The notes beneath the pieces are model-generated. The model had not been told where the DNA came from, did not search any database, and saw only the letters and a list, made by a program, of their open reading frames with translations. A stretch of 64,000 nt of DNA from Eledone cirrhosa (lineage: Eukaryota). The DNA lies in contig OZ024753.1 of NCBI GenBank assembly GCA_964016885.1, positions 35,650,001 to 35,714,000 of the forward strand, in the 5' to 3' direction. This document shows positions 37,410-63,324 of this stretch, one piece after another (the stretch's first letter is position 1; every line of letters begins with the position of its first letter). A program made the translations under genes and the position numbers.

Positions 37410-37474
37410 TATTTCATTATACATATTTCAAGGACACCAATGCAAATTATGGTGCGCTTTCATCAGATAAAATA
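37410..37474 (-). ncRNA. Minimal type I hammerhead ribozyme (family A, AUA cleavage triplet)
   Basis: Minus strand: TATTTTAT-CTGATGA-AAGCGCACCA taatttgcat TGGTGTCCTT-GAAA-T atgt ATA-ATGAAATA. Core intact, 8-bp stem I, stem II with one C.C mismatch. Confidence 0.8.
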
Positions 37475-37911
37475 TAATATAGATCAGTTTTATAAACAAA
37501 TATTGACATACCCTTAAAGAATGCGACCATATCGGTTGGAGGCTCCCGGATAGTGGGGTTACTAATTTTATTATTGGTCTATTATGCAAATTAGTGTCGG
37601 AGAGGTTTAAATCCCAGTACATTTAAATTAAGCCGTTGGAATAGGGAATATATATATATATGTGGTCACAAATACACTGATATGCTTGCCCTCATATATT
37701 TACTTATGCACACATTTTTTCACTATACACATGCATTTGTACATACACACATATGTACATTTGTGAGTGAATATACACACATTTATACACATACCCTAAC
37801 TATATTTCGTTATTTTTTTTATATATCTCTTGCATTACTTTTATTTATATATTGTTTTGCCCGTTAAACTTTTGCCTTTCTTGAGGAAATTTTTCAAATA
37901 TTTCAGTTTTA

Positions 37912-37989
37912 AATTACCTTGTCTGATGAACGAATGAGGACGTTTTTTGTATTCGTCTTATTCGGGAAACCTCTGGTAATGAGGTAATT
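37912..37989 (+). ncRNA. Type I hammerhead ribozyme (family B, GUA triplet)
   Basis: AATTACCTTGT-CTGATGA-aCGAATGAGGACG..CGTCTTATTCGg-GAAA-CC tct GG-TA-ATGAGGTAATT. 11-bp stem I with 2 G.U pairs; A.G mismatch at the base of stem II. Confidence 0.75.
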
Positions 37990-38912
37990 ATATTGTATTG
38001 TTTATTATACATTATATATATATATATATATATTTTACAGACTTTTGTGTCAAATCATCATCCAGATAGATGTCGAAACGGCAAGAGCTCTCTCTCTCTC
38101 TCTCTCTCTCTTTATATATATATATATATATATTTATACATAATAATATAGATGAGGTGTCAAATTTTCATTATATTTATTGATGTGGGATGTGCGTTTC
38201 GCGATTCATCAGCTTTGCCTTTTATCCTTATGGGTCGATGAAATAAAGCACCAGTAATGCACTGGGCTTCATTTATTCAACTTACCCCTCCCTCGACATT
38301 GTTATTAAATCCACCGACAATCTACATAATCTTCTGGTTCACGGTTCCTTCATTTCTCATTCAGCCTGGATCCTTTGCTAACTCCTGTTTCTGCTGCAAC
38401 ACTTGTCCCTTCACCCACAAAATTACAACCCTACATAAACCTGACTAATTCTTTCAGGTCACTGGCTGATTCATTTATACTTCCAAGAACATCATCACCA
38501 TCACAACCATCATCATCCTCATTTTTATGTCCACTTTTCCATGCTTGTATGGGTTGGACAGGTCCTTTGTAAAGCACACCCTCGCTCCATCATTTCCACT
38601 GTGTGATTTTCAGCATTTTGAGACCAGCTCTAACTACTTCTGCTCAGGTTTTTCTCAGTCTGTCTGTATTACAGCTTCCTCTCACTGACATCTCCTGGCA
38701 CTTCTATATTTATCTGCTGCATAAAATACCAACTCAGCAGCTTATTGTAAAAGTGGTTGTCAAGTGGCTGATATCTGACTGACCCAACAACAATGAATCA
38801 CTGAGGCCTTATAGATCCTCCATTCAATTTTCTAAGCTGTATCTTGCTATTAGCAACTTTACACATCACCATGGATTTTTTTGTCTCCTACTTACATCAT
38901 GAACAACAATTG

Positions 38913-39035
38913 CTGTATATACTTGAATATAAGTCAACCTCCCATCTTTTTTTATGTCTGAGAAATGAGCAAAAAGTCAAACCCTGTTTATAAGCCAAGG
39001 CAGTTAATCAACACATTGTTTAGATGGTGTATATA

Positions 39036-39074
<39 letters not shown>

Positions 39075-39141
39075 CGCTATATTTTACCATCAATTTTTTT
39101 TTTTGTCACATATTCCTTGGCTTATATTCAAGTATATATGG
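38913..39141. mobile_element. Tc2/pogo-like MITE
   Basis: TIRs CTGTATATACTTGAATATAAGTCAA / TTGGCTTATATTCAAGTATATATGG followed by TA. Confidence 0.65.
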
Positions 39142-41141
39142 TAATTTTCCAGTTAAATGCAGATAACTCAGCCTTCTGCTAAAAACACTGCTTAGTACCC
39201 TCATACATTTTTATTTGTGTATTAATACAAAATGATGGGGGACAAATTTTCCATTTCAAATGTTCCTTAATTCTGTCAAATTCTGTTTGTTTGTTTTTTT
39301 CATTTTATTGTATTTCATGGAGAAACTGCAATAAATGTTGGCCTTAGTTATTTCTCATTATTATGTTGGTGTTTGGTGGATTGGCAGTATCGGTAGAGGG
39401 TCGGACGCCATGCTTTCCAGCATAGTTACGTCCCTTTACGATCTGAGTTCAAATCCCACCGAGGTTGACTTTGCCTTTCATCCCTATGGGGTCGATAAAA
39501 TAAAGTACCAGTAATGAACTGGATATGTGTTGGCCTTGTGCCTAAAGTAGAAACAATTATGTTGGTGTTTGGAAAATAGGTTAAATATAAAATTGAGCAG
39601 GTTATATATGTTAAATCATTGATCCACTCTGTGTGTGAGTCTGTGAAACATAGACATATACACCAGGTCCAAACACAAAGGAACCAAACTCTCACTGCCT
39701 CTGTCTCTCATGCTCTCCCCCTCTCTCACAACTATGAGCAAATGGGGGCTCACATGCTGGCCATTCTGTGGCCTCAGAAAATATTAGTCTCGAAAATTGT
39801 TCTGCAGTGGGCCATGAAAAAGTAGTTTGTGGGCCATATTCATCTCATAAGCTGCATGTTTGAAATACCTACCTTAAAGAGTATACTACAATATGGCTGC
39901 ATCAAGACAAAAGATAAAAACCAAACAAAAAAAATCCCTCAAAATGTCAAGCAGTCTTCAGTTGCTATATAACACTTCATTCTTTCCATCTCCCTTAACC
40001 TTTTAATGACCTGTTATTATCCTACTATAAATAAGTATCTCCCATAGCTCCCATTCATGACTGGCTGCAGGCTTTGTCTTCTTCTCCTACTATGATCCAT
40101 TTACTCACTGGAGTAATGAATGGATGTTGTTACTGTCATGTCATGTCATGTTGTTTGATCTTTCCATCTGTAGCCTAATGCTCCACTGACATTTTTGCTT
40201 TAGTTGACATATCCTCAATCTATCCTTCTGTACTAAATAATTGTTTCTACTTTTTGCATTTTATATTTATTGGGCCCCTTAAGGATGAATGGCAAAGTAA
40301 TGCTAACCTCAGCAAGATTTAAACTCAGAACATAAATGGCTGTAACTATATGCTGGAAAGCATGTTGTCCGAAGCTCTACTAATATTGCCAATCCATCCA
40401 TATAAGCACAGTTTTCCAAAAATTCCAATTAACTAATTTTATTAGTGTTATCTCCCTTGTTTGTTTGTTTTATTTTACATATTCAACATTCTTAGCGGGA
40501 GTTTTTGTCTACTAACTGCTAAATCTGTGAAAGTTTTGAAAGGGAAAATTATCACATGGTTTTTACAATCAATACAAAGGGGTAGTAAAGGGTAGACTAT
40601 TGGCGTGTAACAGAGTTGCTAGAAGAAGCAGTCTATTTCAGCCTAATTTTTTACTCAACCATAAAGGAGTTAGGACAAATTATAGAAAGTACATATACAT
40701 ATTGATACATAAGTATAAACACATATTCTTCTTTTTGTAGACTTTGTATATAGGTGGAACATCATAATCTTTTAAGTGCTTACAAAGGGCCTCAAAAGGA
40801 CACAACCTGGCCTTGCTTCCATCCTATCAGTCATGATATCTTTGAAAAGGATCAGGGACACAGCGCTTCCATTTCTAACTAAACAGTCAGTAAAAAAAGA
40901 AAAAAAACATATGTCTGAAACATAATCTTGTGAAAATTTGTTCATACTCTTGTCAAAACTATGTATATCAGGGCATCTGGGTTTCTGGGTCATTTGTCTA
41001 ACTCTATTCTCATGATTTCATTTACATCTACTTATGCTTCTCATGAATATTACAAAATATTACATAAACACTACTTGACTGTTTACTTAATTGAATCTAC
41101 TTCAAAAGGATAAAATGCAAAGATGACTGACCGAGGTGAGG

Positions 41142-41648
41142 TTAACCCTTTAAACATTTAAACCAGATGTATCTGGCCAGAATTCTTTCACCTCTTTCTG
41201 TTCAAACTAACCATAACTGACCCCTCATACTGACTTTAACCCTTTAGCATTTACATTACTCTCTATTTACTTTTGTATTTTCATGGTAAAGACTTTACCT
41301 CACATAATTATCTTACACAATATCGAATCTATGAGAATTTGGTATTTATTTTGATAACAATACCTTAAGTATGAGTGGCTGGTTACAGCTGGTTTGAACA
41401 GAAAAAGGTGAAAAAATTCTGGCCGGCTATGCCCGGTTTAAATGCTAAAGGGCTAAACCATCCATATCTGGCTAGAATTCTCTCACCTCTTTCTGTTCAA
41501 ACCAGCTGTAACTGGCCACTCATACTGATGTTAAGGTATTGTTCTCAAAATAACTAATATCAAAATCTCGTAGATTTGATATTATATGAGATATTTATGT
41601 GAGGTAAAGCCTTTACCATGAAAATATAATAGTATATATAGAGTAATC
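41142..41648. mobile_element. Nested piggyBac-type MITEs (inverted copy 41240-41452 between two partial forward pieces)
   Basis: Same body as the 12729 and 29090 copies, present in both orientations. Confidence 0.75.
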
Positions 41649-41965
41649 ATCATCATCATCATCATTTCATTTTACGTCCACTTTTCCCTGCTTGCAAGGG
41701 TGGGACGGGAACTGATTCTGGCTTGATTTCTACAGCTGGATGCCCTTCCTAACACCAACCTCATTTACAGTGAGTGGTGGGTGCTTTTTTGGCGTGGCAC
41801 CTCCACGACCATTTTGCAGTGGTCATTTCTACAGCAGAGTAAACTGGAGCAATGTGAAATAAAGTGTCTTGTTCAAGGAAACAACACATCATCAGGTCTG
41901 AGAATTGAACTCACAACCTTTCGCTTGCAACGCCAATGCTCTAATCACTAAGCCATGTGCCTCCA
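41648..41965 (-). mobile_element. tRNA-derived SINE
   Basis: Reverse complement of the 62975 family, with an internal deletion. Confidence 0.85.
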
Positions 41966-42002
<37 letters not shown>

Positions 42003-42204
42003 AGTGAGTGTGTGTGTGGGGGGGGGGGGGGGGTAAGCATAAGCAAAAGGAAAATAATCTAGATTTTAGTGTCTGGAATGTTGTGCAACTTTACACATGG
42101 CACATTCACTTTATGTTATCTTAATGACCCAAATATAAACTAAAATTCTTACAATGACAAAAAGACTTCTAGTACAGGAGGTACGTCTGTTATAGAAGTG
42201 ATGT

Positions 42205-42710
42205 ATACATGCAAAAGCGACTGAAAAATTCATAGACTGAGAAGTTCATAGGCTGACACTCTCATGGAATGACCAAATGAGGTTTATTTTTCAACATAAT
42301 CACTGGAAAGAAAAATGTAGTTATTAATAAGAAGAGTTGAAATTAATGCATGCAAGATTTCACAGCTCTAACATCGCTCCTTCATAGGCTAACCAAGATA
42401 CTCTCATGGAATGACCAAATGAGGTTTATTTTTCAACATAGACCTTGGAAACAAACAATGCAGTTATTTATAAGAAGAGTTGAAATTAATGCATGCAAGA
42501 TTTCACAGCTCTAGCATCATTTATTTATAGTCAGTCTATGACGAAGATACTCTCATGGAATGATCAAATGAGGTTTATTTTTCAACATAGTCCCTGGAAA
42601 GAAACAAGGCAGTTATTAATAAGAAGAGTTGAAATTAATGCATACAAGATTTCATAGCTCTAGCATCACTCCTTCATAGTCAGCCTATGAAATGTTCAGC
42701 CTACCCTCAT
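42205..42710. mobile_element. Mariner-type MITE with three tandem internal ~160-bp units (single-unit copy at 57752-57950)
   Basis: TIR-like AAGTTCATAGGCTGAC / GTCAGCCTATGAA..TTCAGCCTACCCTCATA; body ACTCTCATGGAATGAYCAAATGAG repeated 3x. Confidence 0.75.
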
Positions 42711-43478
42711 ATATAAACAATTGTAAGTAGATATGTGTGTGTGCCTGTGTGTGTGTATGTGTATGTGAGTATGTGTGTGTCTGTGTGTATGTATTCACTC
42801 TAGAAGGTGGTAATGCTGGAGTCACAATAGAATAAACCCAGTACACTCTGTAAAATGTGTTGGCATTAACAATGAGTAGCCAGCCTTAGAGACCAATCCT
42901 GTAAAAATTAGTTGTGAACGTGCAAGATATGGTCACATGACATATCTCAATGCAGTACGTGACAATCTCTTTAAATCATGCAAGTATGGGAAATAAATGT
43001 TATACAATGGTGGTGGTGTTGTTGTTGTTCTTGTGGTGGTGGTGTTGTTGTGGTGGTGGTGGTGATGATGGTGTTGACGATGATGATGATGATTTTTTAT
43101 ATCAGAGAACCAGGGGAATCTTTGGATGTGTTGATATCAAAAGAGTTAAGAAAACAGTTTTTTTTTTCATGTTTAGGGGCTCATTAAGCTGACCCTTACC
43201 CAGTTTCATGTAGCGTTAAATGACTGAGAATACAAGAACCCCTCTCCCTCTAGGACAGTCCTTCACAAAATACTATTGGTATTCCTATTTTCAGCTAACT
43301 TGACTGGAGCAATGTGAAATGAAATACCTTGCTCAAGGAGGAGATAGTATGCCACCACCCATTTATTGAAATTCTGTTCGGTCTATGTTAGCTATGCTTG
43401 TGTGTTTACTGTATATATTATCATCATATATATCTATATATATCTATATCTCTCTCTCTCTATATATATATATATATA

Positions 43479-43555
43479 CAGGGTGTCCCCCCAAAAAATA
43501 TATACACTTTGATTAGAATGTTGTTGAAGTGTGTATACATTTTTGGGACACCCTG
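43479..43555. mobile_element. 77-bp Tc1-type mini-MITE (copies at ~56096-56187 and ~57987-58067)
   Basis: TA|CAGGGTGTCCC...GGGACACCCTG|TA. Confidence 0.8.
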
Positions 43556-43574
43556 TATATATATATACATATAA

Positions 43575-43687
43575 AGGAACAAGTATGACCCTGACGGCAG
43601 AGCTCAAGCCGTTTCGACGGCTAATTCTGGACTAGAATTAACCATCGAAATGGCTTGAGCTCTGCTGTCGGGGTCATACTTATTCCT
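43575..43687. repeat. Near-perfect palindrome, ~54-bp arms
   Basis: AGGAACAAGTATGACCCTGACGGCAGAGCTCAAGCC...GGCTTGAGCTCTGCTGTCGGGGTCATACTTATTCCT. Confidence 0.92.
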
Positions 43688-43880
43688 ATTACCCACTCTA
43701 CTACCCTAAGTATTGAGTACTTTGGTGCGTTATGGTCCATCTGGTTCCTTACCACATTTCCTTTGTATAAACACACACAGACACATATATATATATACAC
43801 ACAAACACATATATATACATATATCTAGAGTGGGTAAAATTCCCAAAGATATATATGTATATATGTATATGTATATATAT

Positions 43881-43957
43881 AATTCCATTTACCAAAGGTT
43901 TCATGAAGACAGACAAGCTCGACACAGACGTCTGAAATCACTCATCAGAATGAAATT
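43881..43957 (-). ncRNA. Type I hammerhead ribozyme (family B, GUA triplet)
   Basis: Minus strand: AATTTCATT-CTGATGA-GTGA tttc AGAC..GTCT gtct TCAT-GAAA-CC ttt GG-TA-AATGGAATT. Confidence 0.78.
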
Positions 43958-44527
43958 TAATAAAATTTCATGTTGTTTATTACATAACTAAATAGCTCTG
44001 TAGCTTACACAGAGCACTCTCCTTTCCTACGGAAACACTTAATATATATATGTATCATCATCATCATCATCATCATCGTTTAACATCCGTGTTCCACGCT
44101 TGCATGAGTTTGGACGGGGGTTTTCCCACTTGAGGCAAGAGTGGTTGTCTTGCTCACATAGGACTGTCTGGCGGGTTTTCTACAGCTGGATGCCCTTCCT
44201 AACACCAACCACATTTACAGTGTGGGGCTGGGAGGTTTTTACCGTGTTGCCTACACGGCCACATTTACAGCGTGGACTGTGTGTTTTTTTGTCGTATATA
44301 TATATATATACACACACATATATATATATACACGCACACATATATATATATATACACGCATACATATATATATATATACACGCACACACACATATATATA
44401 TATATATACATGCACACATGTATATATAACTATATATAATAGAATTGTTATCAGACGTGGCATGAAATATTCAACATTTTAAGATCTACGTGACAGAATT
44501 GGTAGATCATCTGGCAAATTGCTTTAA

Positions 44528-44731
44528 CCCCTAGTATTTAAACCGGCCGAATCTGGCCAGAATTCTCTCACCTCTTTCTATTCAAACCTGTTGTTGCTGG
44601 CTGTTCATACTGACATTAAGTTATTGTTCCCAAACTAAATATCAAAACCTCTTAGATTCAATATTATGTGAGATAAAGCCTTTTCTGTGAAAATATAATA
44701 GTAAATATAGAGTAATGTAAATGCTAAAGGG
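44528..44731. mobile_element. piggyBac-type MITE copy
   Basis: TTAA|CCCCTAGTATTTA...TAAATGCTAAAGGG|TTAA. Confidence 0.8.
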
Positions 44732-46494
44732 TTAACAGAATTTATTCTGGTTGTTTATGTTCTGAGTTCAAATCCTGCTAAGGTCAACCTTGCCTTTCAT
44801 CCTTCTAAGATTGATAAATTAATGTACCAGTAAAGTACTGGTGTCAATTCAAATTACTTCTCCCTCTTCTCTGCAAATCGATGGACTGTATTGTCTAAAG
44901 TGTCCTTTTCTAAGATAATGGTTTCTGATTTAGGCACAAGACCAACAATTCTTTGGGTGTGGGGTGAGGAGAAAGTCGATTAAATCGACCCAGTGCATTA
45001 GCGGTGCTTTATTTTATGTGGTTTAAGACTTCATTGGGGAGTTGAGTCCAAGTGTGGGGAACCTTGGGCATGTGTCCTCAACTAAAACCAATAATCAAAT
45101 GTCCTCAACTAAAACTGTGAATCAAGTGTCCTCAACTTTAGCCTTGGATCAAATGTCCTCAACTAAAACTGTGAATCAAGTGTCCTCAACTTTAGCCTTG
45201 GATCAAATGTCCTCAACTATAGCCACAAATCAAATGTCCTTAACTACAGCCTCAGATAAATTGTTCTCAAACTATAGCCATGGATCAATCAATGCCTTGT
45301 GAGTGAAATTTGGAAGTCACACCATTAAATATTGGGTCAAGGTGTACTATAAATGTTTTTAACGTAAGATAATAAGTTGAAACATATCAATTTGAGATAA
45401 AAGCAAGAATTAATGATATTACATACAGTTTTAACATTACCTGTGAACTACATGTTTTTGATTATGTATAATCTTAACTGTGACTTAGGATTAATTAAGT
45501 CAAGAGACTTGATTTTTTCCTATTTTTATCTTTATTTTATTTCTACATTTTTGTAATGGTAACACAGCAGTCTGGCATACGGTAGGTGTGAGTTCAAATC
45601 CCACTAGTGACATTGTCCCCCTTTTTTCCCTCTCTAGAGGTTTATATGCTCACCATCTTCGACTATTTTTCACACTCAAAAACCTACATTGAAGCAATTA
45701 GCTCTTAAGATTAAGGCTGTAATCTGGTCCATCCAGCCGCAGAAACTAAGCCAAAGTACAGATCCATATAAGCAAGAAATGGTCACCTGACCTGTCTGCC
45801 TACATAATGTGGCGAGCATTTAAACTGGCCATATCCGGCTAGAATTCTCTCACCTCTTTCTGACCAAACTGGCTGTAACTGGTCACTCATATTGATGTTA
45901 AGGTATTGTTCTCAAAATAAATATTATCAAAATCTCATAGATTCTATATTATGTGAGATAATTATGTAAGATAAAGCCAACAACAACAACAACAACTGAT
46001 TTTATAATATGAAACCCAAGTTTCATATTATAGAATCAGGGACAATTTCAGGCAATTTGAAATGAAAATAGGTTGACTAGCCCCACCTTACATATTTTCT
46101 TGAGGACCTATAACTATTTTCTCACTGGTGAAACTGTCACAGCTTTGCCATAACATTTCAACTGTTTTTGGTATTTTTTTTATTATTTTACATTCCATTT
46201 TTTCATACAAGGGAAGAGGAATATCATTCTTTTTCTTCTTTTGTCTTCTTCTTCTTCTTTGTCCTCATTGTTGTGGGTGTCGTTATCAATGATGGTGGCG
46301 GCGGTGGTGGCGGCGGCGGTGGTGGTGGTGGTGGTGTTGGTGTTGGCAGTAGTGGTAGTGTCAATGTGGTGGTACTGTTGTTGGTAGTGGTTGTGATGTT
46401 GGTAATGTTGTTGTTAGTGTGAAGCTCCTGTTGGTAATGGTGGATGGTGGTGGTCGTGGTTGTGATGGTAGTGGTGGTGTTAGTGTGATGATGA

Positions 46495-46528
<34 letters not shown>

Positions 46529-46884
46529 GGTGATGTTACAACCAGTGGTGTTAATAATAGTTTCTTACATATTTTTTGTTAGTTTGAAGCACATGGAAAG
46601 AGAAGGAGGAGGAAGAGAGGAGGGGGGAGGAGGAGGCGGAAGAGAAGGAGGGATGTAATCCTTCATGACTTATTAAAAGAAGCATTTATTTTTATTGTTT
46701 ATTTTATTGTTACTTTATTTTAAAAGGGCGATTACCCCCCCCCCCCCCCTCTTACCACCACCAGAGAGTAGTTCCATTATCTTCTTCATTACAGCTGCTA
46801 ACACTTGTTTAGTTTAAACTAACTCAGCATTGGTGTAGTAGGAGTGGGGCAAATGTGGGAACAGTTGATAAAGTTTCAGTAAAA

Positions 46885-47360
46885 CCATGTGGCAGGTCAA
46901 GACTTTGAGGTCAACACATCAAGGTCAACACATCAAGGTGAGCAATACCATGTGGCTGGTTAAGACATTGAGGTCAACAATACCAAGGTAAGCATTACAA
47001 AGTGGCTGGTCAACAACACCATGACAGGTCAAGACATTGAGGTCAACAACACCAAGAGGCAGGTCAACACACTGAGGTCAAACATCAAGGTCAGCAATAC
47101 CATGTGGCTGGTCAACACACTGAGGTCAACAACAAGAGGTAGGTCAACACACCAAGGTCAACAACACCAAGAGGTAGGTCAACACACCAAGGTCAGCAAT
47201 ACCATGTGGTTGGTCAACATACTGAGGTCAACACATCAAGGTCAGCAATACCAAGAAGATGATCAGCAACATCAAGAGGCTGGTCAAGACATCAAGGTGA
47301 AAGTGGCAGTCAGCAATACCAAGGTCAGCCAAACCAATAAGCTGGTCAACACACCAAGTA
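46885..47360. repeat. Degenerate tandem repeat built on GGTCAACAC / GGTCAGCAATACC
   Basis: More than 20 irregularly spaced GGTCAA/GGTCAG motifs. Confidence 0.75.
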
Positions 47361-47689
47361 AATCCAACCTTACATGAGTTAGTTCAGAGGGTAACATGCT
47401 GTACTGAACAGCTGAGGGAACTGAAGACCAACACGAAATAAAATGTTTTACTGAAGGACACAATACATCATCTAGTCTAGGAACTGAAGCCACAATTCTC
47501 TAACTATTAAGCTACACACCTCTACTTTATGTATGCTGCCAAGTGGTTTAGGCTTGTGTAACAACCCAAAACTGGTTGCCACAGCTGGGATTTAACACAT
47601 CTATCTACCCACTCTACATCTTGCTGTGTATCGAGTACTCACTTGATTATTGGTCTCCTCGGTCTCAGCACTGCAGACTCTATCTATAT

Positions 47690-47968
47690 ACATATATATA
47701 AATGCATATATATATATATATAAGTACATATATCATATATACATATACATATATATATATATATAAGTACATATATCATATATACATATACATATATATA
47801 TAAGTACATATATCATATATACATATACATATATATATATATATATATAAGTACATATATCATATATACATATACATATATATATAAGTACATATATCAT
47901 ATATACATATACATATATATATATATATATATAAGTACATATATCATATATACATATATATATATATA
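47690..47968. repeat. AT-rich minisatellite (TA)nAGTACATATATCATATATACATATACA
   Basis: Six tandem units. Confidence 0.9.
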
Positions 47969-48189
47969 TTTAGAAGTCCAACGAGCTTTTGATTCCAGAT
48001 CAATACAGATCGAACCTTGAGCTGATCAATCGCGAAATGCACATCACTAGTCAATAAACCTAATGAAGACCTAACAAATCATCCTTTTTATTATTAATAT
48101 ATATATATATATCATCATCATCAACATCATTATTGTTTAGCATCCATTTTCCATGCTAGCATGAATTATGTGTGTATATATATACATTT

Positions 48190-48492
48190 TTTCATTTCAT
48201 TTTACGTCCACTTTTCCCTGCTTGCAAGGGTGGGATGGGAACTGATTCTGGCTTGATTTCTACAGCTGGATGCCCTTCCTAACACCAACCTCATTTACAG
48301 TGAGTGCTGGGTGCTTTTTTGCCGTGGCACCTCCACGACTACTTTGCAGTGGAATGATAGGGACCCCAGTCCCTATCATCTCATTTCTACAGCTGAGTAA
48401 ACTGGAGCAATGTGAAATAAAGTGCCTTGCTCAAGGAAACAACACATCACCCGGTCTGAGAATTGAACTCACAACCTTTCGATTGCAAGGCC
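48190..48492 (-). mobile_element. tRNA-derived SINE, 5'-truncated
   Basis: Near-identical to the 60222-60561 and 62975-63316 copies. Confidence 0.85.
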
Positions 48493-49669
48493 ATATATAT
48501 ATATATAACAGAATTCAATAACATGAAAACATAATTCTAATTTAACCAGCCAGTTGTCTATAACAATGGAATGTCAAGACAGCATCACATGACTTTAACA
48601 ACATAAAGACTGGTGAGAACAATAAATATTTAATAAAGAAAATATTGTAAAATTTACTCCATAAACACAATAGAATATAATACTATATATATTACTTGTT
48701 TTTCAAAAGGTTTGGGAATTTAGTTTGAAATTCAACACCATTTGTAGTTACATCCAGTGAATTGGTAGAGTCATTAGAATATCACATAGAATGCTTTGTG
48801 GTATTTGTTTCAGTTTTCTGCACTCCTATTGAAGACGCTTAACCCTCAAGGATGCATCCCATGACAACCAAAACTTGAAAAAACAATAATAAAATTGTGA
48901 AGTTTGAAAGTCACTACAATGTGGTTGTGGTGAAAATATCCAGGTAACAAGATCGACAAGTAATTCTGTTTTATGTGGTGAATAAAAACAAGAAAAAACC
49001 AGAGATGATGTTACCTTCGAATTTATTGTACCTATATTTCAAACATTTCGTCTTTCATCAGGGTTTATAGCAAAGAAACTCTGGTGTAGATGATTGTTAG
49101 ACCAGCGTTGCTGAGGTCAACTTTGCTTTTCATCCATTCGGGGTCGATATAAAAAGTACCAGTTTAATGGTGGGGTTCATTCTTCTTTTATATCTCTTTC
49201 TCACTTCCATTCTCTCACTTTCTTTATATTTCTCTGGAAGAAATCTGCTGAATTTAGATTTGGAATGTGAGGAGATGGGCTCTGCCAGGTTTTAAAAAAA
49301 ATGTCTTAGAAATGCTGTATATCAATGTGGCGCCCCCTACGATTCCCTCAGGATTTATGGGTCCATATATTCAGTAATTCAGTAGTGCCTTCAACATAAG
49401 ACTGCTTGGCAGAAAGTCTCTCTCATGTACTTTAAGGGTAAAGAAGGGTTCATACATTCTGAACATGTTGAGAAGATATTCAGCTTCCTAGATTTAGGGC
49501 AGTAGATATATGATAGACTGGGAATTTCTCACGAAATGAGGGGTATGAGTGGGGTACAAGTGGGGGTAGGGCACCACCAGAAGAATTCCATCTAAAAAAA
49601 TTACTGTGAAAACCAACTGTTCATTATTTACATATTACCACCCTGCAAGGCAGTAATACTGTTGACTCA

Positions 49670-50612
49670 ATAAAAAGCACCCAGTCCACCCTGTGAGGTG
49701 GTATGTAGTGTTGGTGCCATGATAAAAACCACCCAGTCCACCCTGTGAGGTGGTAGGTAGTGATAGTGCCATGATAAAAAGCACCCAGTCCACCCTGTAA
49801 GGTGGTAGGTAGCATTGGTGCCATGATAAAAAGCACCCAGTCCACCCTGTAAGGTGGTAGGTAGTGTTGGTGCCATGATAAAAAGTACCCAGTCCACCCT
49901 GTGAGGTGGTAGGTAGTGTTGGTGCCATAATAAAAAGTACCCAGTCCACCTTGTGAGGTCGTAGGTAGTGTTGGTGCCATGATAAAAAGTACCCAGTCCA
50001 CCCTGTGAGGTGGTAGGTAGTGTTGGTGCCATAATAAAAAGTACCCAGTCCACCTTGTGAGGTCGTAGGTAGCGTTGGTGCCATGATAAAAAGCATCCAG
50101 TCCACCTTGTGAGGTGGTAGGTAGTGTTGGTGCCATAATAAAAAGTACCCAGTCCACCTTGTGAGGTCGTAGGTAGTGTTGGTGCCATGATAAAAAGCAC
50201 CCAGTCCACCCTGTAAGGTGGTAGGTAGTGTTGGTGCCATGATAAAAAGTACCCAGTCCACCTTGTGAGGTGGTAGGTAGTGTTGGTGCCATGATAAAAA
50301 GCACCCAGTCCACCCTGTAAGGTGGTAGGTAGTGTTGGTGCCATGATAAAAAGTACCCAGTCCACCTTGTGAGGTGGTAGGTAGTGTTGGTGCCATGATA
50401 AAAAGTACCCAGTCCACCCTGTAAGGTGGTATGTAGTGTTGGTGCCATGATAAAAAGTACCCAGTCCACCCTGTGAGGTGGTAGGTAGTGTTGGTGCCAT
50501 GATAAAAAGTACCCAGTCCACCCTGTGAGGTGGTAGGTAGTGTTGGTGCCATGATAAAAAGTACCCAGTCCACCCTGTGAGGTGGTTGTGCTGGTGCTAT
50601 GATAAAAAGCAT
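49670..50612. repeat. 52-bp minisatellite (~18 units) inside a SINE
   Basis: Unit GTAGGTAGTGTTGGTGCCATGATAAAAAGTACCCAGTCCACCCTGTGAGGTG, followed by the SINE 3' part. Confidence 0.95.
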
Positions 50613-51563
50613 CCAGAACGTGCTGTAAAGTGGTGGGTGTTAGGAAGGGCATCCAGCCATAGAAACCATACCAGGAATGGAACATATGAGCAAGATATGG
50701 TCATCGGCCTAGTCTAGCTGTAGTACGTGACAATGTGACAAATAGACATTAGACATGGTGGTGGTGGTGGTGGTGATAATCATGATGATGATGATGGCGA
50801 TGTTGATGATCATAATGATTAGACCTACTGAACTATGACAACCAAAGACCTGCTAATTACTAACAGAAATTCTAATTATCTGTATATAATTGTTTCTACT
50901 TTAGGCACAAGGCCGGCAATTACTCAGTGCATTACTGGTACTTTATTTTATCGACCCCCGTAAGGATGAAAGGCAAAGTCAACCTCGGCGGGATTATCTG
51001 TATATAATCCGTCTGTATTTGGTTTAGAATAGGTACACCATACACCAGCCTGCTGTAAGAAGCAACTAAAAGGGTTGGTGTCAGGAAGAACATCTAACTG
51101 TAAAACATTGCCTCAAAAAGTTCCATCCAACCCATGCCAGAATGGGAAATTCAATGTAAAATCATTGGTGATGATGCCGATGATGATAATGGTGACAATG
51201 ATGGCAACGATGATGATGAATCATTAAAAAATAGCTAGTAATGAGCATTAGTAAAAACAAAACATGCAAAATTCCCACCATTTGAAATATAATTAATTGT
51301 GCTACATATAATCAATTATAAGCGGCAATAATGTAAAATAGCTGGAATATATACCAGAACAAAACTGTGAAAATGATGAGCTTCAAGCAAGCTTTCTTGT
51401 AGTCGTTCGATCTGCTAGAAATAGCAGCCAAATTTTCTTCAGATCACACCATGGTATGGAATGGTCCCATAACTCTTGATGGATTCGTAGGGCTGCCGTA
51501 TTAACATACAGCGTTTCTTTGACATTTTAAGCCTGGAGGATCCCATCCCTCTCCAGGCCTGAG

Positions 51564-52220
51564 TGGCATACGTCAAGACGGGCGGTCAGGAAAGTGAAAG
51601 TAATTTTTGACACTGTGAATTTTTTTTGAATTTTTTTTTTTACAACAGGTCTCAATAGTGAAAGTTACGATACACACGCAATTGTATGGATTTCTTAATA
51701 TATATATATATGTGTGGGTGTGTATATGTGTGTCTGTATGTATATATATATATATGTGTGTTTGTATATATATGTGTTTGTGTCATCATCATCGTTTAAC
51801 GTCTATCTTCCACGCAAGCATGGGTTTCTGACCCAAATCCCTTATCATTCTCTGTCCTTCTTATGACCCGACCTTAATTTCTTTGGGGACAGAGAGTTGG
51901 TGCAAACAAGTTTGGCGAGATGTACAAACACATATATACACACAAACATATATATACGTCTAAACCCATGCTTGCGTGGAAGATAGACGTTAAACGATGA
52001 TGATGACACAAACACATATATATATATACAAACACACATATATATATATACATACAGACACACATATACACACCCACATATATATATATATTAAGAAATC
52101 CATACAATTGCGTGTGTATCGTAACTTTCACTATTGAGACCTGTTGTGAAAAAAAAAAAAAAAAAATTCAGTGTCAAAAATTACTTTCACTTTCCTGACC
52201 GCCCGTCTTGACGTATGCCA
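51564..52220. repeat. Inverted repeat, ~260-bp arms (51564-51827, 51962-52220) with 134-bp spacer
   Basis: TGGCATACGTCAAGACGGGC...CAAGCATGGGTTT is mirrored by AAACCCATGCTTG...GCCCGTCTTGACGTATGCCA. Confidence 0.95.
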
Positions 52221-52298
52221 TATATATATATAGTAATAGTTGTAAATCGAAGTTTTAGCTGTTACTCTGGAGTTTCGTCGGATGACCTATAAAGTCAC

Positions 52299-52558
52299 TG
52301 AGCTTTAAAATGTTACTTGCTTTTATTTGGTTGTATTATCAACACATTTAAAATCTTATTTATATATATATTCATTTATATTAAGGTTAAAAAGTGAGTC
52401 TTGCTACTCTAGAGCTTCGCCTGTTCTGATAAACAGGCGAAGCTCTAGAGTAACAAGACTCACTTTTTAACCTTAATATAAATGAATATATATATAAATA
52501 AGATTTTAAATGTGTCGATAATACAACCAAATAAAAGCAAGTAACATTTTAAAGCTCA
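52299..52558. repeat. Near-perfect palindrome, 127-bp arms, 6-nt loop
   Basis: Centre ..CTCTAGAGCTTCGCCTGTT ctgata AACAGGCGAAGCTCTAGAG.. Confidence 0.95.
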
Positions 52559-53276
52559 ATGTGATTCTATAGTGCCCAGCAAGAAACGGCAAATTCAAGA
52601 GAGGCAATAAAGATATAATAAAACTAGAGGTTATCTCCCTTGTATTAATTGTCTAATCTTTGTTATCATTCTCAATATTTTGATACTAAGCAAGTTTAAT
52701 GGAACAATAAAACGATGTTAAACCATGATACACACAATATTTTTGTAAACTCTCGTAATTTAATGAAAATGTAGCGCTGTCTAGTATAGTGTAAATGTTA
52801 TATTTGTACGGGTTCTCAATATATTCAGGCTTTAAATCGACGTTAAGTTTATGCTTAAAGGCTAACAATATAATCTGATATTTGGTCTTAATTTTCAGAT
52901 TTAAGCACCACATGGTGCTATATAAACCTTACAAGAGAGAATAACTAACGGGTGGATTTATCTATTAAATATTATTGTTTTTAAGTATTAAGTTCTGACG
53001 AGGGTTAGGCTCCGCCAGGTTCAAAATGTCAATGATACGCTGTGTCGGGGTTCCATACATCAATTAAATATTATTGTTTAGCATGACATCAGCTCCTATC
53101 GAGTAGACCTACCAATACTAACTTTCCAGTCATGACCACCACGTGTTATTCATATATCAGCGACTACATTATTCAATGTATTACTTCAGTATTTAAACCG
53201 GTCTCGTATATAATTTGAGGGGAGATTTTGGCTACTATTTCTACTAAGTCGAGTAACTAGGTAGATGCTGTTTTCC

Positions 53277-53310
<34 letters not shown>

Positions 53311-54128
53311 ATAAAAGTTATATCTGTATATATACGACATAGAGGCAATCGAGACTTCGTAAATGTGAATATAAATTTACACATTTTTATATAGACATAT
53401 AAACATACCAAACATTCATATTTCCTTGCTACGTATATTTGGCATGTATATATATCTATATCTATAGATATAGATATATATATACTAAAAATGTGTAAAT
53501 TTGTATACACATTTGCGTAGTTTCGGTTACCTCCATACAGTATATACTACATATATATATAGTTATAATTTTAACGTATACTACGGTTGCTTAGCACACA
53601 ACTTAATATATACAGTATATATCGATATATATAATATGTATCGACAACACGCTCTGATTCCTTTTGATGAATGACTCATTATAACTGACAATTATTTAAC
53701 ATCCTTTATTATTTATTCATGTCTTTTTAAAAAATCCTCTACCTATATAAGCAGTAGATGACATCACTGTAGAGATGCTTGACAACGGGAAATTTTTTTT
53801 TTTTTTTGTCTTAATATTCTGGTTCTACCTGACACACGCCATATTGAATTCATATAGCACCGCCAAACACACACACGTGTGTGTGTGTGTTTATATATAT
53901 GTATGTGTGTTGTGTATTCATGTATATGTATGTAAATATTATATATATATATATATCATAAATCATGTCTTTAGAATTATTAGATAAAATATATACCATT
54001 TCCTCTCTCTAATATATATATTAATATATATATATATATATATATTAATATATATATATATATATATTGCACGCACACATATACATGCATATGTAGTGTA
54101 GATTTTCTATTCATTTTATATCTATCTA

Positions 54129-54184
<56 letters not shown>

Positions 54185-54260
54185 ACTCATGCCGCCAATA
54201 ATAACAATAGTGTTGAATGTATTTAATTTTTTGGGTCCAGTATTTGTATGCTATTTGTGC

Positions 54261-54319
<59 letters not shown>

Positions 54320-54449
54320 AAGGTTAAACAAGGTTCAATGAATAAAGTTTTACAATAGATTAGAAGCACTCCACAGTGATTGGTTTTACGGAGTTATTAA
54401 TATTAATTCAAAATATTAACAAATATAGACATTCGTGTGATCAAGTATA

Positions 54450-54512
54450 TTTTATTATACATATTTCAGAGGTACTGAGCTATCTTCAACAGTACGTCCT
54501 CATCAGATAAAA
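54450..54512 (-). ncRNA. Minimal type I hammerhead ribozyme (family A)
   Basis: Minus strand: TTTTAT-CTGATGA-GGACGTACTG ttgaagatagct CAGTACCTCT-GAAA-T atgt ATA-ATAAAA. Confidence 0.8.
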
Positions 54513-54844
54513 TAAGATGATGCATGACATACCTTGACTAAGTAGATGGTTAAAATTCAGTCATGGCAGTGAATAAGATAGGACAAAACTCAATATTTAT
54601 ATACCTTAAGATTGAGACATGAAAAATTACATATAATACAGAGGGTGCGTGTGAGAAAGCTTATAAAGATACATAATAATAAACAACTACTAATATAATA
54701 TAAACCTACATAACTGTTAGAAATTTAAATTATTGAAGAAAGGGGAAGTGAAAGACAGAGAGAGAAACAGATGAGGAAAAAGAGAGTGACTATATATATA
54801 TATATATATATATATAAAGCCACATGATTGATGTATATCGATCT

Positions 54845-54879
<35 letters not shown>

Positions 54880-56248
54880 GGCACGCACCCACAACACATA
54901 TATGAAAATGTGAATGTGACCTGACCCGTTCATACTCCCTCTGTCACTGCTACCTTGTTAATTCTCATCATCATCCCCACTCAAAAAATGTAGGAGAGGG
55001 CTGTACAGTTGAGAATTACCCATAACCTCATTGGTATTAGAGATACGATAAAATGCACTCAGTGCACTCTGTAAAGTTGTTGGTGTTAGGAAGGGCATTT
55101 AGCCGCCGTAGACAGCATGCCAAGAACATTTCAGTCACGTTGTGGGCATAACAGCCTCACTAGTGCAGATGCTACGAAAAATGCACCTGGTACACCTTAT
55201 GAAGTGGCTGGTGTTAGGAAAAGCATCCAGCCGTAGAAAACTTACCAAATAAAGGGTTGACAGGACCGTGTTAAGGGCACCACAACCTCCCTAGTGATGA
55301 CGCCACAATAGATTGCACCCTATACACTCTGTAAAGTGGTTGGCGTTAGGAAGGACATCCAGCCGTATAAAACTGGCACACAGACGGTAGAGAGAATTCT
55401 TCAATTGTGCTAAAGACATCGTTTTTGTATATCTAACATCGTTTTTTTTTTGTTTTTTGGGTTTTTTTTGGCATTGAAAACAGAAGTTACTACTACTTAA
55501 GCAAGCAAGGAAAGTGAGGACAGATAGCTAAATGTTACAATTCTTCGCCGCCAAATTAATTTTTTTTTTACGTGTACACACACGTATATATTCACACGTA
55601 TATATGCAGACATACACACACAGATAGACACGCGCATGCGCTCCCTACATACACATACACACACGCACGTGTATGAGTTTATATATAGAACTGTTTAAAC
55701 AGATGAATACTTAATTATTTGGGACACGCAGATATATATATAATACAAATATACATATATAATACAAATATATATATATGTTTAGAAGACGGCGAGCGGA
55801 ATTTGAAATTTGAATTGGCTTTCGCCGTATTTTTGACAACAGAAAAAGTCTAATTCCGTTCAGAGGCTTATTCAATTTTCATATATATATATATATATAT
55901 TTGAAATGTAGTCATCCCAACGTAAATGATCATAACAATGGATCGATCACTCACTATTAATAATAGTTGAGAAAATCGGGTTAAGTACCCATGGAGACGA
56001 GAAGTGAACTGAGGGAGGCGCCTGCAATGAGACGGACCCCCTCCACATTCCGGATGTTCATTTACATACATATATATATGTGTGTGTGTGTGTGTACGGT
56101 GTCCCCCCCCCCCCACCCCCCAAAAAAATGTATACACACTTTAACAGCATTCAAATCAAAGTATGTATACATTTTGGGGGGACACGCTATATATATATAT
56201 GTATATATGTATATATATATATATATGTGTGTGTGTGTAAAGTTCTAT

Positions 56249-56292
<44 letters not shown>

Positions 56293-56386
56293 GGAGGTGA
56301 GTTTTATTGTAGTACAATAAAGCAATGCAGATATCGGATAAGAAGCACTCTACAGTTTGTAGGACTGGAGTATACATAATATTGTT

Positions 56387-56441
<55 letters not shown>

Positions 56442-57372
56442 ATTATTTTCGTTTTAGCTATGACAACTCAGGCCATGCTGGATCCTTATGCGTGTGCACG
56501 CGCCTGTATTGATGTATCAATAGCACTCACTCATAACGTGTGGTTTGTCTGTTTTTCTAAATAGAAAGACAAATAGAGAGGATGGGGAAGAAATAGATCG
56601 GATGAAGAAATAAATAGAAAGAGAGAGGGTGAGAGAAAGAGTAAGATAGAGATGTGAATTAGTTGCTGAAAATATGTTTAATAGCAGTTACATTTAGTGA
56701 ACAAGATCAGCTTGTTATTCAAACAACCAAACCACAAACAAAAATAGATATATTGTGAAGGAAAGATAAAGATAAATAGTGCGAGGAAACACTTTTTTTT
56801 CAAAATAAATACTACTAATACTAATAATATTATCGGAAACATGAGATTGATTGCTAGTAAATATTGTTAGCTTTGTCTTCTTCATTCATGCCAGCCACGT
56901 TTTAACATCAGTAGGCAGACATTTAATAAGATAAGACAATATTGATATTTATTATATATTATTATTACATTAAAGCAGAGCTGACAACATTTCTCGTCTT
57001 TTTTAACCCTTATTTATCTGTCAGTGGATGTAAATAAACAATCGCTTTTGTCTTGGTTTTTTTTTTTTCTTGTTTATTTTTAGAAGCACTGGACGAATTA
57101 CGGATTATGAATTATGAAAATATAATATATAGCTTGAAGTTAGCTGCTTCAACGTAGATTTTTTTATTGGGTTTATTTTATTATTATTTTTTTTTTTTAC
57201 TATGAAAAATAGTGGAACAAGTTTCTGTATACGACTCCACCAGAGACGGGGGAAAAGTAAATGTTGTCCATATATATTATAGTATATTAATTTGTGTGTG
57301 GCCAGAAAAAAAAAATGAAATATAGATGAGCAAGAGAGGGAGAATGGAGGAAAGAAAACTATAGAATGGGAA

Positions 57373-57429
<57 letters not shown>

Positions 57430-57452
57430 CGAGCTATTAGTAATTATATGTG

Positions 57453-57482
<30 letters not shown>

Positions 57483-57488
<6 letters not shown>

Positions 57489-57685
57489 CAATACTTCCTT
57501 GAATATATATACACACTCAGTGAAGAAAAAAAAAAATATATCAATGAAATACACAGTAGCTAAGGTTGGTTACACACGAAGTTCTTGTCAGTTGTCACCT
57601 GAGCTGCTAAGTGACAATTAACCAATACACACCCTTACCACAAGTCGATCTTAAACACATGTCTATGTATATGTGTGTGTATGTG

Positions 57686-57716
<31 letters not shown>

Positions 57717-57957
57717 TCTCTCTCAATTAAAATATATATATATATATATATATGAAGGATGAAAAGTTCATAGGCTGACCAAGATACTCTCATGGAATGA
57801 CCAAATGAGCTTTATTGTTTAACAGACTCTGGAAAGAAACAATGCAGTTATTAATTAATAAGAAGAGTTGAAATTAATGCATGCAAGATTTCACAGCTCT
57901 AGCATCACTCCTTCATAGTCAGTCTATGAACTTTTCAGCTTACTCTCGTGTACACAC

Positions 57958-57988
<31 letters not shown>

Positions 57989-58061
57989 GGGCTGTCCCCG
58001 CCAAAAATGTTTACACACTTCAACAGCATTCTAATGAATATGTGTATACATTTTTGGAGGA

Positions 58062-58133
<72 letters not shown>

Positions 58134-58312
58134 ATATATACATGCGTTTAAGATCGACTTGTGGTAAGGGTGTGTGTCAGTTAATTGTCACTTACCAGCT
58201 CAGGTGACAACTGACAAGAACTTCGTATGTAACCTACACTAGCTTACTGTGTATTTCATTGATATTTTTCCTCGACACTGTGTGTATATATTCGAGGAGA
58301 GGTATTAAATAT
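57483..58312. repeat. Diverged inverted repeat (~180-bp arms) enclosing two MITEs and (TA)n tracts
   Basis: CGAAGTTCTTGTCAGTTGTCACCTGAGCTG..CCCTTACCACAAGTCGATCTTAAAC is mirrored at 58145-58230. Confidence 0.88.
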
Positions 58313-59339
58313 ATACAGTATATATATATATATATATAAAATTACTGTGATAGCTTTGTTTAGTTAAAGCATCAGTTAAAATAGCCATACAAATTTATGC
58401 TAATTCTTTCTTTGTCTTCCGCGTCAGAAATATTTATAAATTGGTTTCAAGGCCAACTTTTATAACAGGGAGGAGTTTAAATGAAATAAATCGATATCTT
58501 TGTATCTTTACTTCTTTCCTCCTTTTATTGATTCCGGAAGGATGGATGGTAGACATGACCACGCCGAGATTTGAACTCAGGAAGAAAACAAAACAATTTA
58601 TAAATAGCTAAAAATAATTAAATTGTTAAGATAAAGAAAGCAGAAAACACCCCCTCCGTAAAAATATTTATAAAATCGAACGAATTAAGAAGCTGTCTAA
58701 TCAACGTTTGACTTGTTCGATGTAGCTGTGAAATCTCCATCAACAAACTGCTACTCCGTTTAAACTTAAGATAGCATAGTATGTTCCATAATAAAGTCGG
58801 GATGGATGGCCATTATTGGAAGCATTCATCAGATTCATCGTTCGATCAATTAACTCTCTGACCTAAAGGTCTGCTGCTTAAATAGATATACCCCCCCCCC
58901 CCCCAAAAAAAAACATTATTTAAAAATCGATGTTATTTGAAGAATGTATAAAATTATATGATATACACATTTATTTTTATATAGTAAATTGTGAACAATA
59001 GCGTCGTAGGTATGAAGTTTCCATCATCTAATAATTAATTCAATATATTTTTAACAGCGAGGGAGTATTTAACTTGATTCAAAGAAGTTTATTTATGTGT
59101 GTTGAACAATGAAAATAAAAAAAAGTCGAAGATAGATTCTTAATTAGCTCATTGTTTTACGATCGTTTCAGAGGGTTGGTTGATCATGGTAAATCTATAT
59201 ATTGACTAACAGGTAGTGGTTATATCACTACCTATATCTCTCACAGCCTTATCTCATTGTAACCAAGGCAGCATTGAGTTCTAACAATGTTATCAGCCCC
59301 ACCATAAAAAGGTAGACACCAATATGTGTGTGTGTATAT

Positions 59340-59496
59340 GGCCTCAGCCGGATGGCTGGAACCGGTAAAAGATTATAACCCTGCGATGGACTGGCGTCTT
59401 GTCCCAGGGGGGAGTCTTGCACTCTCAGTCGCTTCACGCCATGAAACCGAGATAACCACTGGCCTAATGAGCCTTCTGGCTTAAGACAGACTTTAG
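59340..59496 (+). mobile_element. SINE 3'/central-domain fragment
   Basis: AACCCTGCGATGGACTGGCGTCTTGTCCCAGGGGG..GTCGCTTCACGCCATGAAACCG resembles conserved domains of widespread metazoan SINEs. Family not determined. Confidence 0.55.
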
Positions 59497-59542
59497 ACAT
59501 ATATATAAATATATATATATATATATAAATATATATAAATAT

Positions 59543-59575
<33 letters not shown>

Positions 59576-59718
59576 ATGATAATAATAAATTTGAAGACTA
59601 AAATCCAAAGAGGTCTCGATAAGGATAAATATATATCAAATATATAAGAACCATCGATTCTTTGCTTAAACTTTAATCTGTTATTGTCAATTTTTATTTA
59701 TAAAACTGATCTATGTTA

Positions 59719-59783
59719 TATTTTATCTGATGAAAGCACACCATAATTTAACTTGGTGTCCTTGAAATATGTATAATGAAATA
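59719..59783 (+). ncRNA. Minimal type I hammerhead ribozyme (family A)
   Basis: TATTTTAT-CTGATGA-AAGCACACCA taatttaact TGGTGTCCTT-GAAA-T atgt ATA-ATGAAATA. Near-identical to the 37410 copy, including flanks. Confidence 0.82.
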
Positions 59784-60003
59784 AATATGGTTGTATAAAT
59801 ATAGTTTCCATTTGTTAATATCGTATATATATATATATATATACGGGATAACAGATTATCGTTATAGGCAGTCCACTTAGATGTAGTCCAGTTAGAGTAC
59901 TCCGTGTAATGAATAGTATTAATGTGTGGCTTAGTTTGACTCAACCAGACATTTCCATAGCGAGTTCGCGGTGATTTCTATGTAGTTTACACTTGGAGTA
60001 ATA

Positions 60004-60213
60004 ATAATTCAAGAAAGAAGAGTGACTTGGTTTGCTATACAATAAGGGCTTTATTCACATTGCTGACAATTGTTTCTTTGATCTGGCAGGTCTAGAGTTT
60101 GCTATCTGCCTGTAGTGAACTCTAGACCTGCCAGATCAAAGAAACAATTGTCAGCAATGTGAATAAAGCCCTTATTGTATAGCGAACCATGTCACTCTTC
60201 TTTCTTGAATTAT
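60004..60213. repeat. Near-perfect palindrome, ~96-bp arms
   Basis: ..GATCTGGCAGGTCTAGAGTT tgctatctgcctgtagtg AACTCTAGACCTGCCAGATC.. Confidence 0.95.
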
Positions 60214-62974: not shown

Positions 62975-63316
62975 GTGGAGGCACATGGCTTAGTGGTTAG
63001 AGCATTGGCCTTGCAATCGAAAGGTTGTGAGTTCAATTCTCAGACCGGGTGATGTGTTGTTTCCTTGAGCAAGACACTTTATTTCACATTGCTCCAGTTT
63101 ACTCAGCTGTAGAAATGAGATGATAGGGACTGGGGTCCCTATCATTCCACTGCAAAGTGGTCGTGGGGGTGCCACGGCAAAAAAGCACCCAGCACTCACT
63201 GTAAATGAGGTTGGTGTTGGGAAGGGCATCCAGCTGTAGAAATCAAGCCAGAATCAGTTCCCATCCCACTCTTGCAGGCAGGGAAAAGCGGACGTAAAAT
63301 GAAATGATGATGATGA
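62975..63316 (+). mobile_element. tRNA-derived SINE, full length
   Basis: Box A and B, core, and tail CCCATCCCACTCTTGCAGGCAGGGAAAAGCGGACGTAAAATG. Confidence 0.9.
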
Positions 63317-63324
63317 AAAAATGA

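Follow-up and report, generated by a model that had tools for sequence, protein, structure and literature searches.

The closest described counterparts of the repeats analysed here are Penelope-like elements (PLEs) of the Hydra clade. The supplement of Craig et al. 2021 (PMC8557442) gives a preference for (TA)n in 26 of its 27 Hydra-clade entries. By our own count of the rows tabulated there, the hammerhead ribozymes carry a U before GAA in 18 of 26 cases and a helix III spacer of 7 nt in 20 of 26, and helix II is at most 26 nt long in all 26; one entry has an inverted, truncated 5' copy, and Hydra-1_Obim, from Octopus bimaculoides, ends about 35 nt past its cut site. According to section 6 of that paper, PLE insertions are heavily truncated at the 5' end, can include inverted truncated copies and need not have a tail; the role of the ribozyme is called unclear. 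Cervera and de la Pena 2014 (PMC4209133) report hammerheads in the thousands per genome, most of them single and in families that vary, and read solo copies as truncated PLEs. For the Poseidon element PAc of Anolis, AT-rich cleavage and internal starts of the reverse transcriptase (RT) are reported in vitro, with a hammerhead that cuts only in the presence of protein and is dispensable for in vitro insertion (Frangieh et al. 2024, PMC11167929). Retrozymes without long terminal repeats (LTRs) have been described in a mussel (PMC7229834) and dispersed monomers related to PLE ends in a preprint (bioRxiv 10.64898/2026.07.22.740005), and 190 families of PLEs are reported to make up 6.83% of the O. 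vulgaris genome. A PLE that joins a type I hammerhead at its 3' end to a (TA)n target has already been published from an octopus. Here we describe five hammerhead motifs (H1 to H5) from 64,000 nt of the genome of Eledone cirrhosa (assembly GCA_964016885.1, contig OZ024753.1, positions 35,650,001 to 35,714,000), a stretch that we call the window.

As judged from their sequence, the five motifs are hammerhead folds, for which self-cleavage is predicted, and they lie in two high-copy repeat families, A and B. These add two abundant, Rfam-invisible hammerhead families to the annotation of cephalopod repeats. We consider it probable that the five loci derive from Penelope-like retrotransposons with an endonuclease, of which they keep the 3' end (pseudo-LTR plus tail) and have lost the 5' part. 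A comparison confined to ribozyme architecture indicates that the source elements of family B were probably Hydra-like.

How do these loci compare with the systems already described? Like the Hydra-clade PLEs of the PMC8557442 supplement, they have a type I hammerhead near a 3' end, and they lie beside TA tracts where those PLEs prefer (TA)n; a U precedes GAA in 4 of the 5 loci, as it often does in that clade, the 7-nt helix III spacer of family B matches the commonest Hydra-clade spacer, and the three helix III pairs of Hydra-1_Obim are those of family B. Family A, with its 6-nt spacer and AUA triplet, departs from the Hydra-clade pattern and, unlike those PLEs, no open reading frame (ORF) was seen at the loci here. 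Identity with Hydra-1_Obim was rejected, as its printed ribozyme and flanks are unlike either family by eye. The hammerheads of PMC4209133 also include ones with a long helix II and small palindromic variants of helix III, with molluscan examples, and opposite-strand pairs 100-700 bp apart are described there, to be set beside the roughly 440 bp between H1 and H2; the loci here differ in that helix III is kept, the G10.1-C11.1 pair is absent and the extra base after position 9 is absent from all except possibly H2. The non-LTR retrozymes of PMC7229834 and the bioRxiv preprint are, like our loci, type I, non-coding and a few hundred bp long, they are PLE-related, as ours probably are, and monomers occur among them; retrozymes are, however, defined by tandem repeats and circular RNA, and no tandem copies were seen in the window. 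Families A and B were not found in literature searches or in motif searches of supplements; Repbase, Dfam and the O. vulgaris repeat library, which were outside the scope of these searches, may hold them.

Five hammerhead motifs in two families

A descriptor that requires the core, NUH and all three helices in the order of type I, applied to both strands of the 64 kb, returned exactly five loci and no further match, and these are the five for which the original prediction had claimed a full type I core. At each of them CUGAUGA, helix II, GAAA, helix III, UA and helix I follow one another in type I order, and a core test for CUGANGA, GAAA and NUH in that order likewise agreed with all five. Block-wise dinucleotide shuffles (four sets of 200) gave a mean of 0.005-0.035 matches and never more than 2. 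A purely sequence-based model of the five loci recovers those five alone, and a relaxed core scan, which is stricter on helix II and hence no census, gave H3 alone. Position numbers within the motif follow the general hammerhead convention.

37410-37474, minus strand: H1, family A hammerhead; base 17 at 37418; in helix II, a C-C mismatch between 3 bp and 6 bp
37912-37989, plus strand: H2, family B hammerhead; base 17 at 37978; helix II with an A-G mismatch at its base
43881-43957, minus strand: H3, family B hammerhead; base 17 at 43890; own tail ends after 9 nt at a TA tract
54448-54514, minus strand: H4, divergent family A hammerhead; base 17 at 54456
59719-59783, plus strand: H5, family A hammerhead; base 17 at 59775

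The locus of H4 had been correctly recognised, although its ends had been drawn short, as helix I takes in 2 bp more on either side. The proposed division into two families stands. Family A (H1, H4 and H5) is marked by an AUA triplet, and its 2-bp helix III carries a near-palindromic tetraloop, a segment that can pair with itself over 6 bp (-2.2 kcal/mol); family B (H2 and H3) has a GUA triplet and a helix III of 3 bp with a triloop. Helix I measures 8, 11, 9, 8 and 8 bp in H1 to H5, respectively, and helix II spans 30-39 nt. The loci had been called minimal hammerheads, a description that does not fit them: minimal hammerheads lack helix III, have an extra base after position 9 and carry G10.1-C11.1, whereas helix III is present in all five, the usual G10.1-C11.1 pair is found in none and helix II is long. 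They had also been called intact-looking. This is right as regards the core, complete in every case, and the three helices beside it can pair in H1, H3, H4 and H5, but it is weaker for H2, which has an A-G mismatch at 10.1-11.1, a mismatch beside the core being a criterion for rejection in PMC3088659.

Covariation is seen in helix II of family A, where 6 of 9 pairs differ on both sides between H4 and H1/H5, all 57 of 57 cells pair, and the C-C mismatch at the fourth position is kept in all three sequences; covariation as high occurred in 1 of 500 shuffles. Helices I and III of family A show no two-sided change. A third family A helix II, read by eye from loose ends of sequence reads, still pairs and keeps the C-C mismatch.

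Rfam searches gave no hammerhead model match among 150 of the 232 rows of the window scan and all rows of the later scans, in which H5 was not scanned again on its own; the matches in all these rows are microsatellite-driven or weak and unrelated. Six matches to the family A pattern in viral contigs, none with helix I by eye, were set aside as chance; the family B pattern had no match in viral contigs, and neither pattern had one in metagenomes.

Module anatomy, abundance and TA tracts

Around the ribozymes, the following modules and pieces could be delimited.

37157-37258, plus strand: family B 3' tail without a ribozyme core, starting at a GUA triplet; delimited from loose ends and alignments
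37280-37648, minus strand: H1 module between TA tracts, with a 139-nt 3' tail; high-depth part at about 37295-37555
37662-38013, plus strand: H2 module with a 35-nt tail, facing H1 head to head with a TA tract in between
43953-44040, plus strand: 3' tail of family B in inverted copy, adjoining H3 on its 5' side and ending at a TA tract
54317-54790, minus strand: H4 module between TA tracts, with a 141-nt tail; 68% alike to H1 over 110 nt
59576-59826, plus strand: H5 module, 92.7% alike to H1 over 59685-59821 only, with a 49-nt tail joined to (TA)n

The likeness of H1 and H5 extends over 137 nt and stops 42 nt upstream of the core. Tails measure 9, 35 and about 100 nt in family B and 49, 139 and 141 nt in family A, which places the ribozyme 9-141 nt from a TA-abutting 3' end, close to the end as in PLEs. 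The H2 tail is homologous to the tail at 37157 (82% over 34 nt), which the original prediction had not named; in 93, 3 and 2 records of three sequence sets, X1, X5 and X6, the loose ends that precede 37157 have the sequence of a family B hammerhead's 3' half. The inverted tail at H3 is 83% alike to 37159-37235 over 77 nt in a masked self-BLAST; as the 5' side of H3 is an inverted tail copy, we read H3 as two truncated pieces head to head, each TA-ended. Truncation at the 5' end, variable tails and an inverted truncated copy, all described for PLE insertions, are represented here, with one clear inversion at H3. No tandem head-to-tail hammerhead units occur among the five loci or elsewhere in the window. 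A splice-donor-like motif lies 30-50 nt upstream of the core in H1 (37505-37515, minus strand) and H4 (54525-54535, minus strand) and is absent from H5; introns near the ribozyme are possible in PLEs.

Read sets were matched to 37140-38060 (921 nt) at 80% likeness. The claim of a high copy number was borne out: 6488 of 16,285,364 contigs (X1) and 32,677 of 12,467,656 restriction-site-associated DNA (RAD) reads (X10) matched, against a single-copy expectation of about 2.5-5 reads that assumes a genome of 2.4-5 Gb and even sampling. Two other organisms matched as well, with 92 of 8,254,286 (X5) and 32 of 13,709,327 (X6). RAD sampling is uneven and depth is not a measure of copy number, so that our conclusion is limited to both families being present in very many copies. 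Depth is highest in the part with the ribozyme and tail, reaching 414 times the lowest scored bin over the H1 tail, and declines towards the 5' side. The junction of H5 with (TA)n equals the loose-end consensus of 5756 reads at 37379, reads which possibly come from few source loci. Fifteen of the 21 joints found comprise seven that change strand, seven that skip and one that goes back by 14 nt. Among relatives of H2, C stands at core positions 4 and 7 in about 73% and 70% of the X1 depth and in 115 of 256 and 186 of 262 X10 reads, respectively. This U4C change in many relatives is unlike the published cases and, according to PMC3088659, U4C reduces activity in vitro; the textbook core of H2 could be the product of CpG decay of a U4C variant.

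The original prediction placed each module between TA-rich tracts. With tracts of at least 4 units, of which there are 102 in 33-64 kb, this holds on both sides of the modules: a tract lies 9-141 nt 3' of the cleavage site in all five loci, and another 83-279 nt 5' of the motif. With tracts of at least 6 units it holds less well, as the 3' tract of H1 is lost and the nearest is then 1318 nt away. Proximity exceeded that of all positions at 4 units (P 0.002-0.003), at 5 units (P 0.001) and less clearly at 6 units (P 0.04-0.14); against AT-matched positions the corresponding values were 0.04-0.07, 0.015-0.028 and 0.19-0.34. Among three other repeats taken as controls, 0 of 12, 1 of 12 and 4 of 6 copies have a tract within 141 nt downstream. 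We regard the proposed TA association as genuine but modest, weaker against AT-matched positions and not confined to families A and B, one control repeat sharing it; as a sign of an insertion bias into (TA)n it is ambiguous.

Origin of the ribozyme loci

Based on these observations, we propose that the loci are truncated PLE ends, a reading to which we give somewhat better than even credence. The anatomy fits PLE 3' ends, with a TA-abutting end near the ribozyme, variable 3' ends, unshared 5' sides and the H3 inversion. The loci had instead been presented as a self-standing non-autonomous system. Section 6 of PMC8557442 describes for ordinary PLE insertions what is seen here, namely a shared upstream sequence of just 42 nt in H1 and H5, variation of the 3' ends and the inverted tail of H3, and we favour truncated PLE ends over such a system. 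Support comes from the motif, the covariation, the abundance, the 5'-declining depth, the variable tails, the inversion and the published PLE parallels taken together. By analogy with PLEs studied before, a full-length element elsewhere would supply a GIY-YIG endonuclease that nicks AT-rich DNA and an RT that starts inside the RNA, 10-140 nt past the ribozyme, and stops early, leaving in the (TA)n tract a stub of 150-450 bp, sometimes with an inverted truncated copy. The PAc mechanism of PMC11167929 offers an explanation for both the optional tails and the AT-rich targets; the PAc ORF begins inside the ribozyme, whereas the translated tails here contain stop codons. The ribozyme is predicted to cut multimeric RNA of the parent element, likely as a dimer or with the help of protein in family A, and possibly as a monomer in family B. 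The majority of single stubs in the genome would be no more than passive copies.

Several observations weigh against this reading. Helix II spans 30-39 nt here, compared with at most 26 nt in the 26 Hydra-clade rows, and a motif search of the PMC8557442 supplement, in which line breaks may hide matches, gave no family A or B match and three unrelated short ones. Covariation was assessed on three sequences, two of them close relatives; fold z-scores against shuffles range from -0.8 to -1.8, none of the loci being clearly more stable, and the hammerhead is the minimum-energy fold in H2 alone. The strand-changing joints can be artefacts of library or assembly. Both X1 and X10 show a sharp, roughly 15-fold loss of depth near 37545-37575, spread over one or two 31-nt bins, and this also fits a discrete element of about 260 nt. 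Read-through peptide searches, which are weak tests, matched 0 of 17 and 0 of 12 candidates, and no RT or GIY-YIG sequence is tied to any ribozyme locus in the flanks. Of the ORFs of 45 aa or more, 168 of 216 in 33-64 kb and 127 of 149 in 1-33 kb were scanned with Pfam; among those scanned there was no GIY-YIG domain, and RT matches occur only at 1291-2133 and 63199-63864, the latter, 3.4 kb from H5, being the sole one in 33-64 kb, in agreement with the earlier statement that no such ORF is adjacent. A missing ORF is expected if the loci are truncated ends. As no RT or GIY-YIG gene is linked to the loci, we infer PLE membership from the 3'-end anatomy and the Hydra-clade parallels, both of which support the Penelope connection that had been suggested. 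Short peptides upstream of H1 and H5 recall what we take to be PLE endonuclease ends; searches with them found nothing and they were not used.

The favoured reading and the two alternatives taken up next are all PLE-related. Could the families be discrete short non-autonomous elements, about 260 nt long in family A, which derive from PLE ends, are self-transcribed and are copied in trans by PLE proteins? The sharp depth edges near 37295 and 37545-37575, the very high abundance, the lack of any coding remnant in the Pfam scans and flanks and the dispersed PLE-end-related monomers of the bioRxiv preprint would all suit such elements. A discrete unit agrees poorly with H1 and H5, which are 92.7% alike yet lose all likeness 42 nt upstream of the core, with the variable 3' ends, with sequence further upstream of H1 that is still multi-copy (2-3.6 times the lowest bin) and with H2 upstream sequence that carries on in contigs up to 822 nt. 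We regard this reading, which comes close to the original prediction, as the main rival, although rather unlikely.

The earlier suggestion of retrozymes acting as dimers would make the loci monomers from tandem non-LTR retrozyme arrays, whose RNA cuts itself twice and becomes circular. The loci resemble this class in their type I topology, low GC and size of 250-450 bp, the self-pairing helix III segment of family A is in keeping with it, and retrozymes have been described in a mussel (PMC7229834). The five loci, however, include no tandem copy, arrays elsewhere remaining possible; no unit-length 'goes back' joint occurs among 15 of the 21 joints, and copies differ in extent at both sides. The suggestion finds no footing in the window, and we judge it highly improbable.

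The chance that the loci are ends of another hammerhead-carrying class, be it a long interspersed nuclear element (LINE), a short interspersed nuclear element (SINE) or a fold-back DNA element, appears very slim indeed. RT remnants that we take to be of LINE type and several fold-back structures are present in the window, and no PLE protein is linked to the loci; on the other side, masked self-BLAST of the window found no sequence common to the ribozyme loci and the LINE or fold-back elements, and the position and architecture of the ribozymes match the PLE table of PMC8557442. Chance motifs in AT-rich DNA, for which the silence of Rfam and the weak fold z-scores might speak, are largely refuted by five motifs where at most 0.035 were expected, by the compensatory changes in family A helix II and by the presence of the repeat families in three organisms.

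Did RNA cut by the ribozyme serve as the template for copies of these families in vivo? At 37157-37258, the stub has the GUA triplet at its start, where a reverse-transcribed 3' cleavage product would also start; this is one stub, and its TA letters may derive from the target, and we hold such copying to be improbable. If it were true, 5' ends piled up at the cut site genome-wide would be direct fossil evidence of in vivo cleavage by PLE hammerheads, and cleavage would set the insertion template, a point left open in the PLE papers cited. That evidence would come from hammerheads with a long helix II and a fixed C-C mismatch that Rfam misses; the two families suggest that descriptors which allow just a short helix II undercount such hammerheads. 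Copy ends that reveal cleavage in vivo would carry the greater weight as PMC11167929 found cleavage unneeded for insertion in vitro, and thousands of copies make the question computationally testable.

Gene setting and other repeats

The window has 34% G+C and is rich in microsatellites. It holds a peroxiredoxin-6 gene, listed here.

12500-36400, minus strand: peroxiredoxin-6 gene, with exons near 36140-36230, 26650-26810, 14800-14960 and 12560-12640

Among 13 matches to an exon, the best named ones are from Octopus bimaculoides (88%) and O. sinensis (85%), which in itself points to a probable octopod host. On the minus strand, the start of the gene is near 36230, and boxes that resemble promoter elements lie near 36360-36375. 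A position of the ribozyme cluster inside the gene was considered and rejected, since CCAAT/TATA-like boxes and the start codon at 36.2-36.4 kb place the cluster upstream of it. An intron of the gene contains a 10-kb (TA/CA) microsatellite (14986-25320).

Octopus Naiad elements also have a preference for (TA)n (PMC8557442), and a Naiad-type remnant is present in the window at 2.9-8.0 kb. According to the same source Naiads are without canonical hammerheads, unlike the loci here, and identity with Naiad_Obim or Naiad_Ovul was rejected, their printed 3' ends being unlike either family by eye. The remnant, a broken Naiad-type PLE RT, belongs to a repeat of about 2.1 kb at 2900-9700, with the DKA motif at 2979, 4386, 6469 and 7959 and a half core without GAAA at 3440, 5527 and 7619. 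Further RT remnants, those taken to be of LINE type, lie at 1291-2480, 10066-10380, 60841-61416 and 63199-63864, of which the first and last alone have a Pfam RVT_1 match; no link between these four and the ribozymes was found.

A 113-nt fold-back at 43575-43687 (z -17) has arms with GAAAC, a stem and GUC; these look like a hammerhead's 3' half in which helix III is long, which possibly makes it a candidate for a third family, and there is a comparable half site at 38075. Two sequences that are 77% alike, 38135-38214 (minus strand) and 48020-48112 (plus strand), share a motif with 5 nt between the core halves, one core being altered. Long near-perfect inverted repeats stand near TA tracts at 51623-52166, 52296-52561, 57558-58244 and 60004-60213, and three copies of a palindrome about 100 nt long, set between (TA)n tracts and with the look of a miniature inverted-repeat transposable element, lie at 43470-43565, 56116-56207 and 57969-58086.

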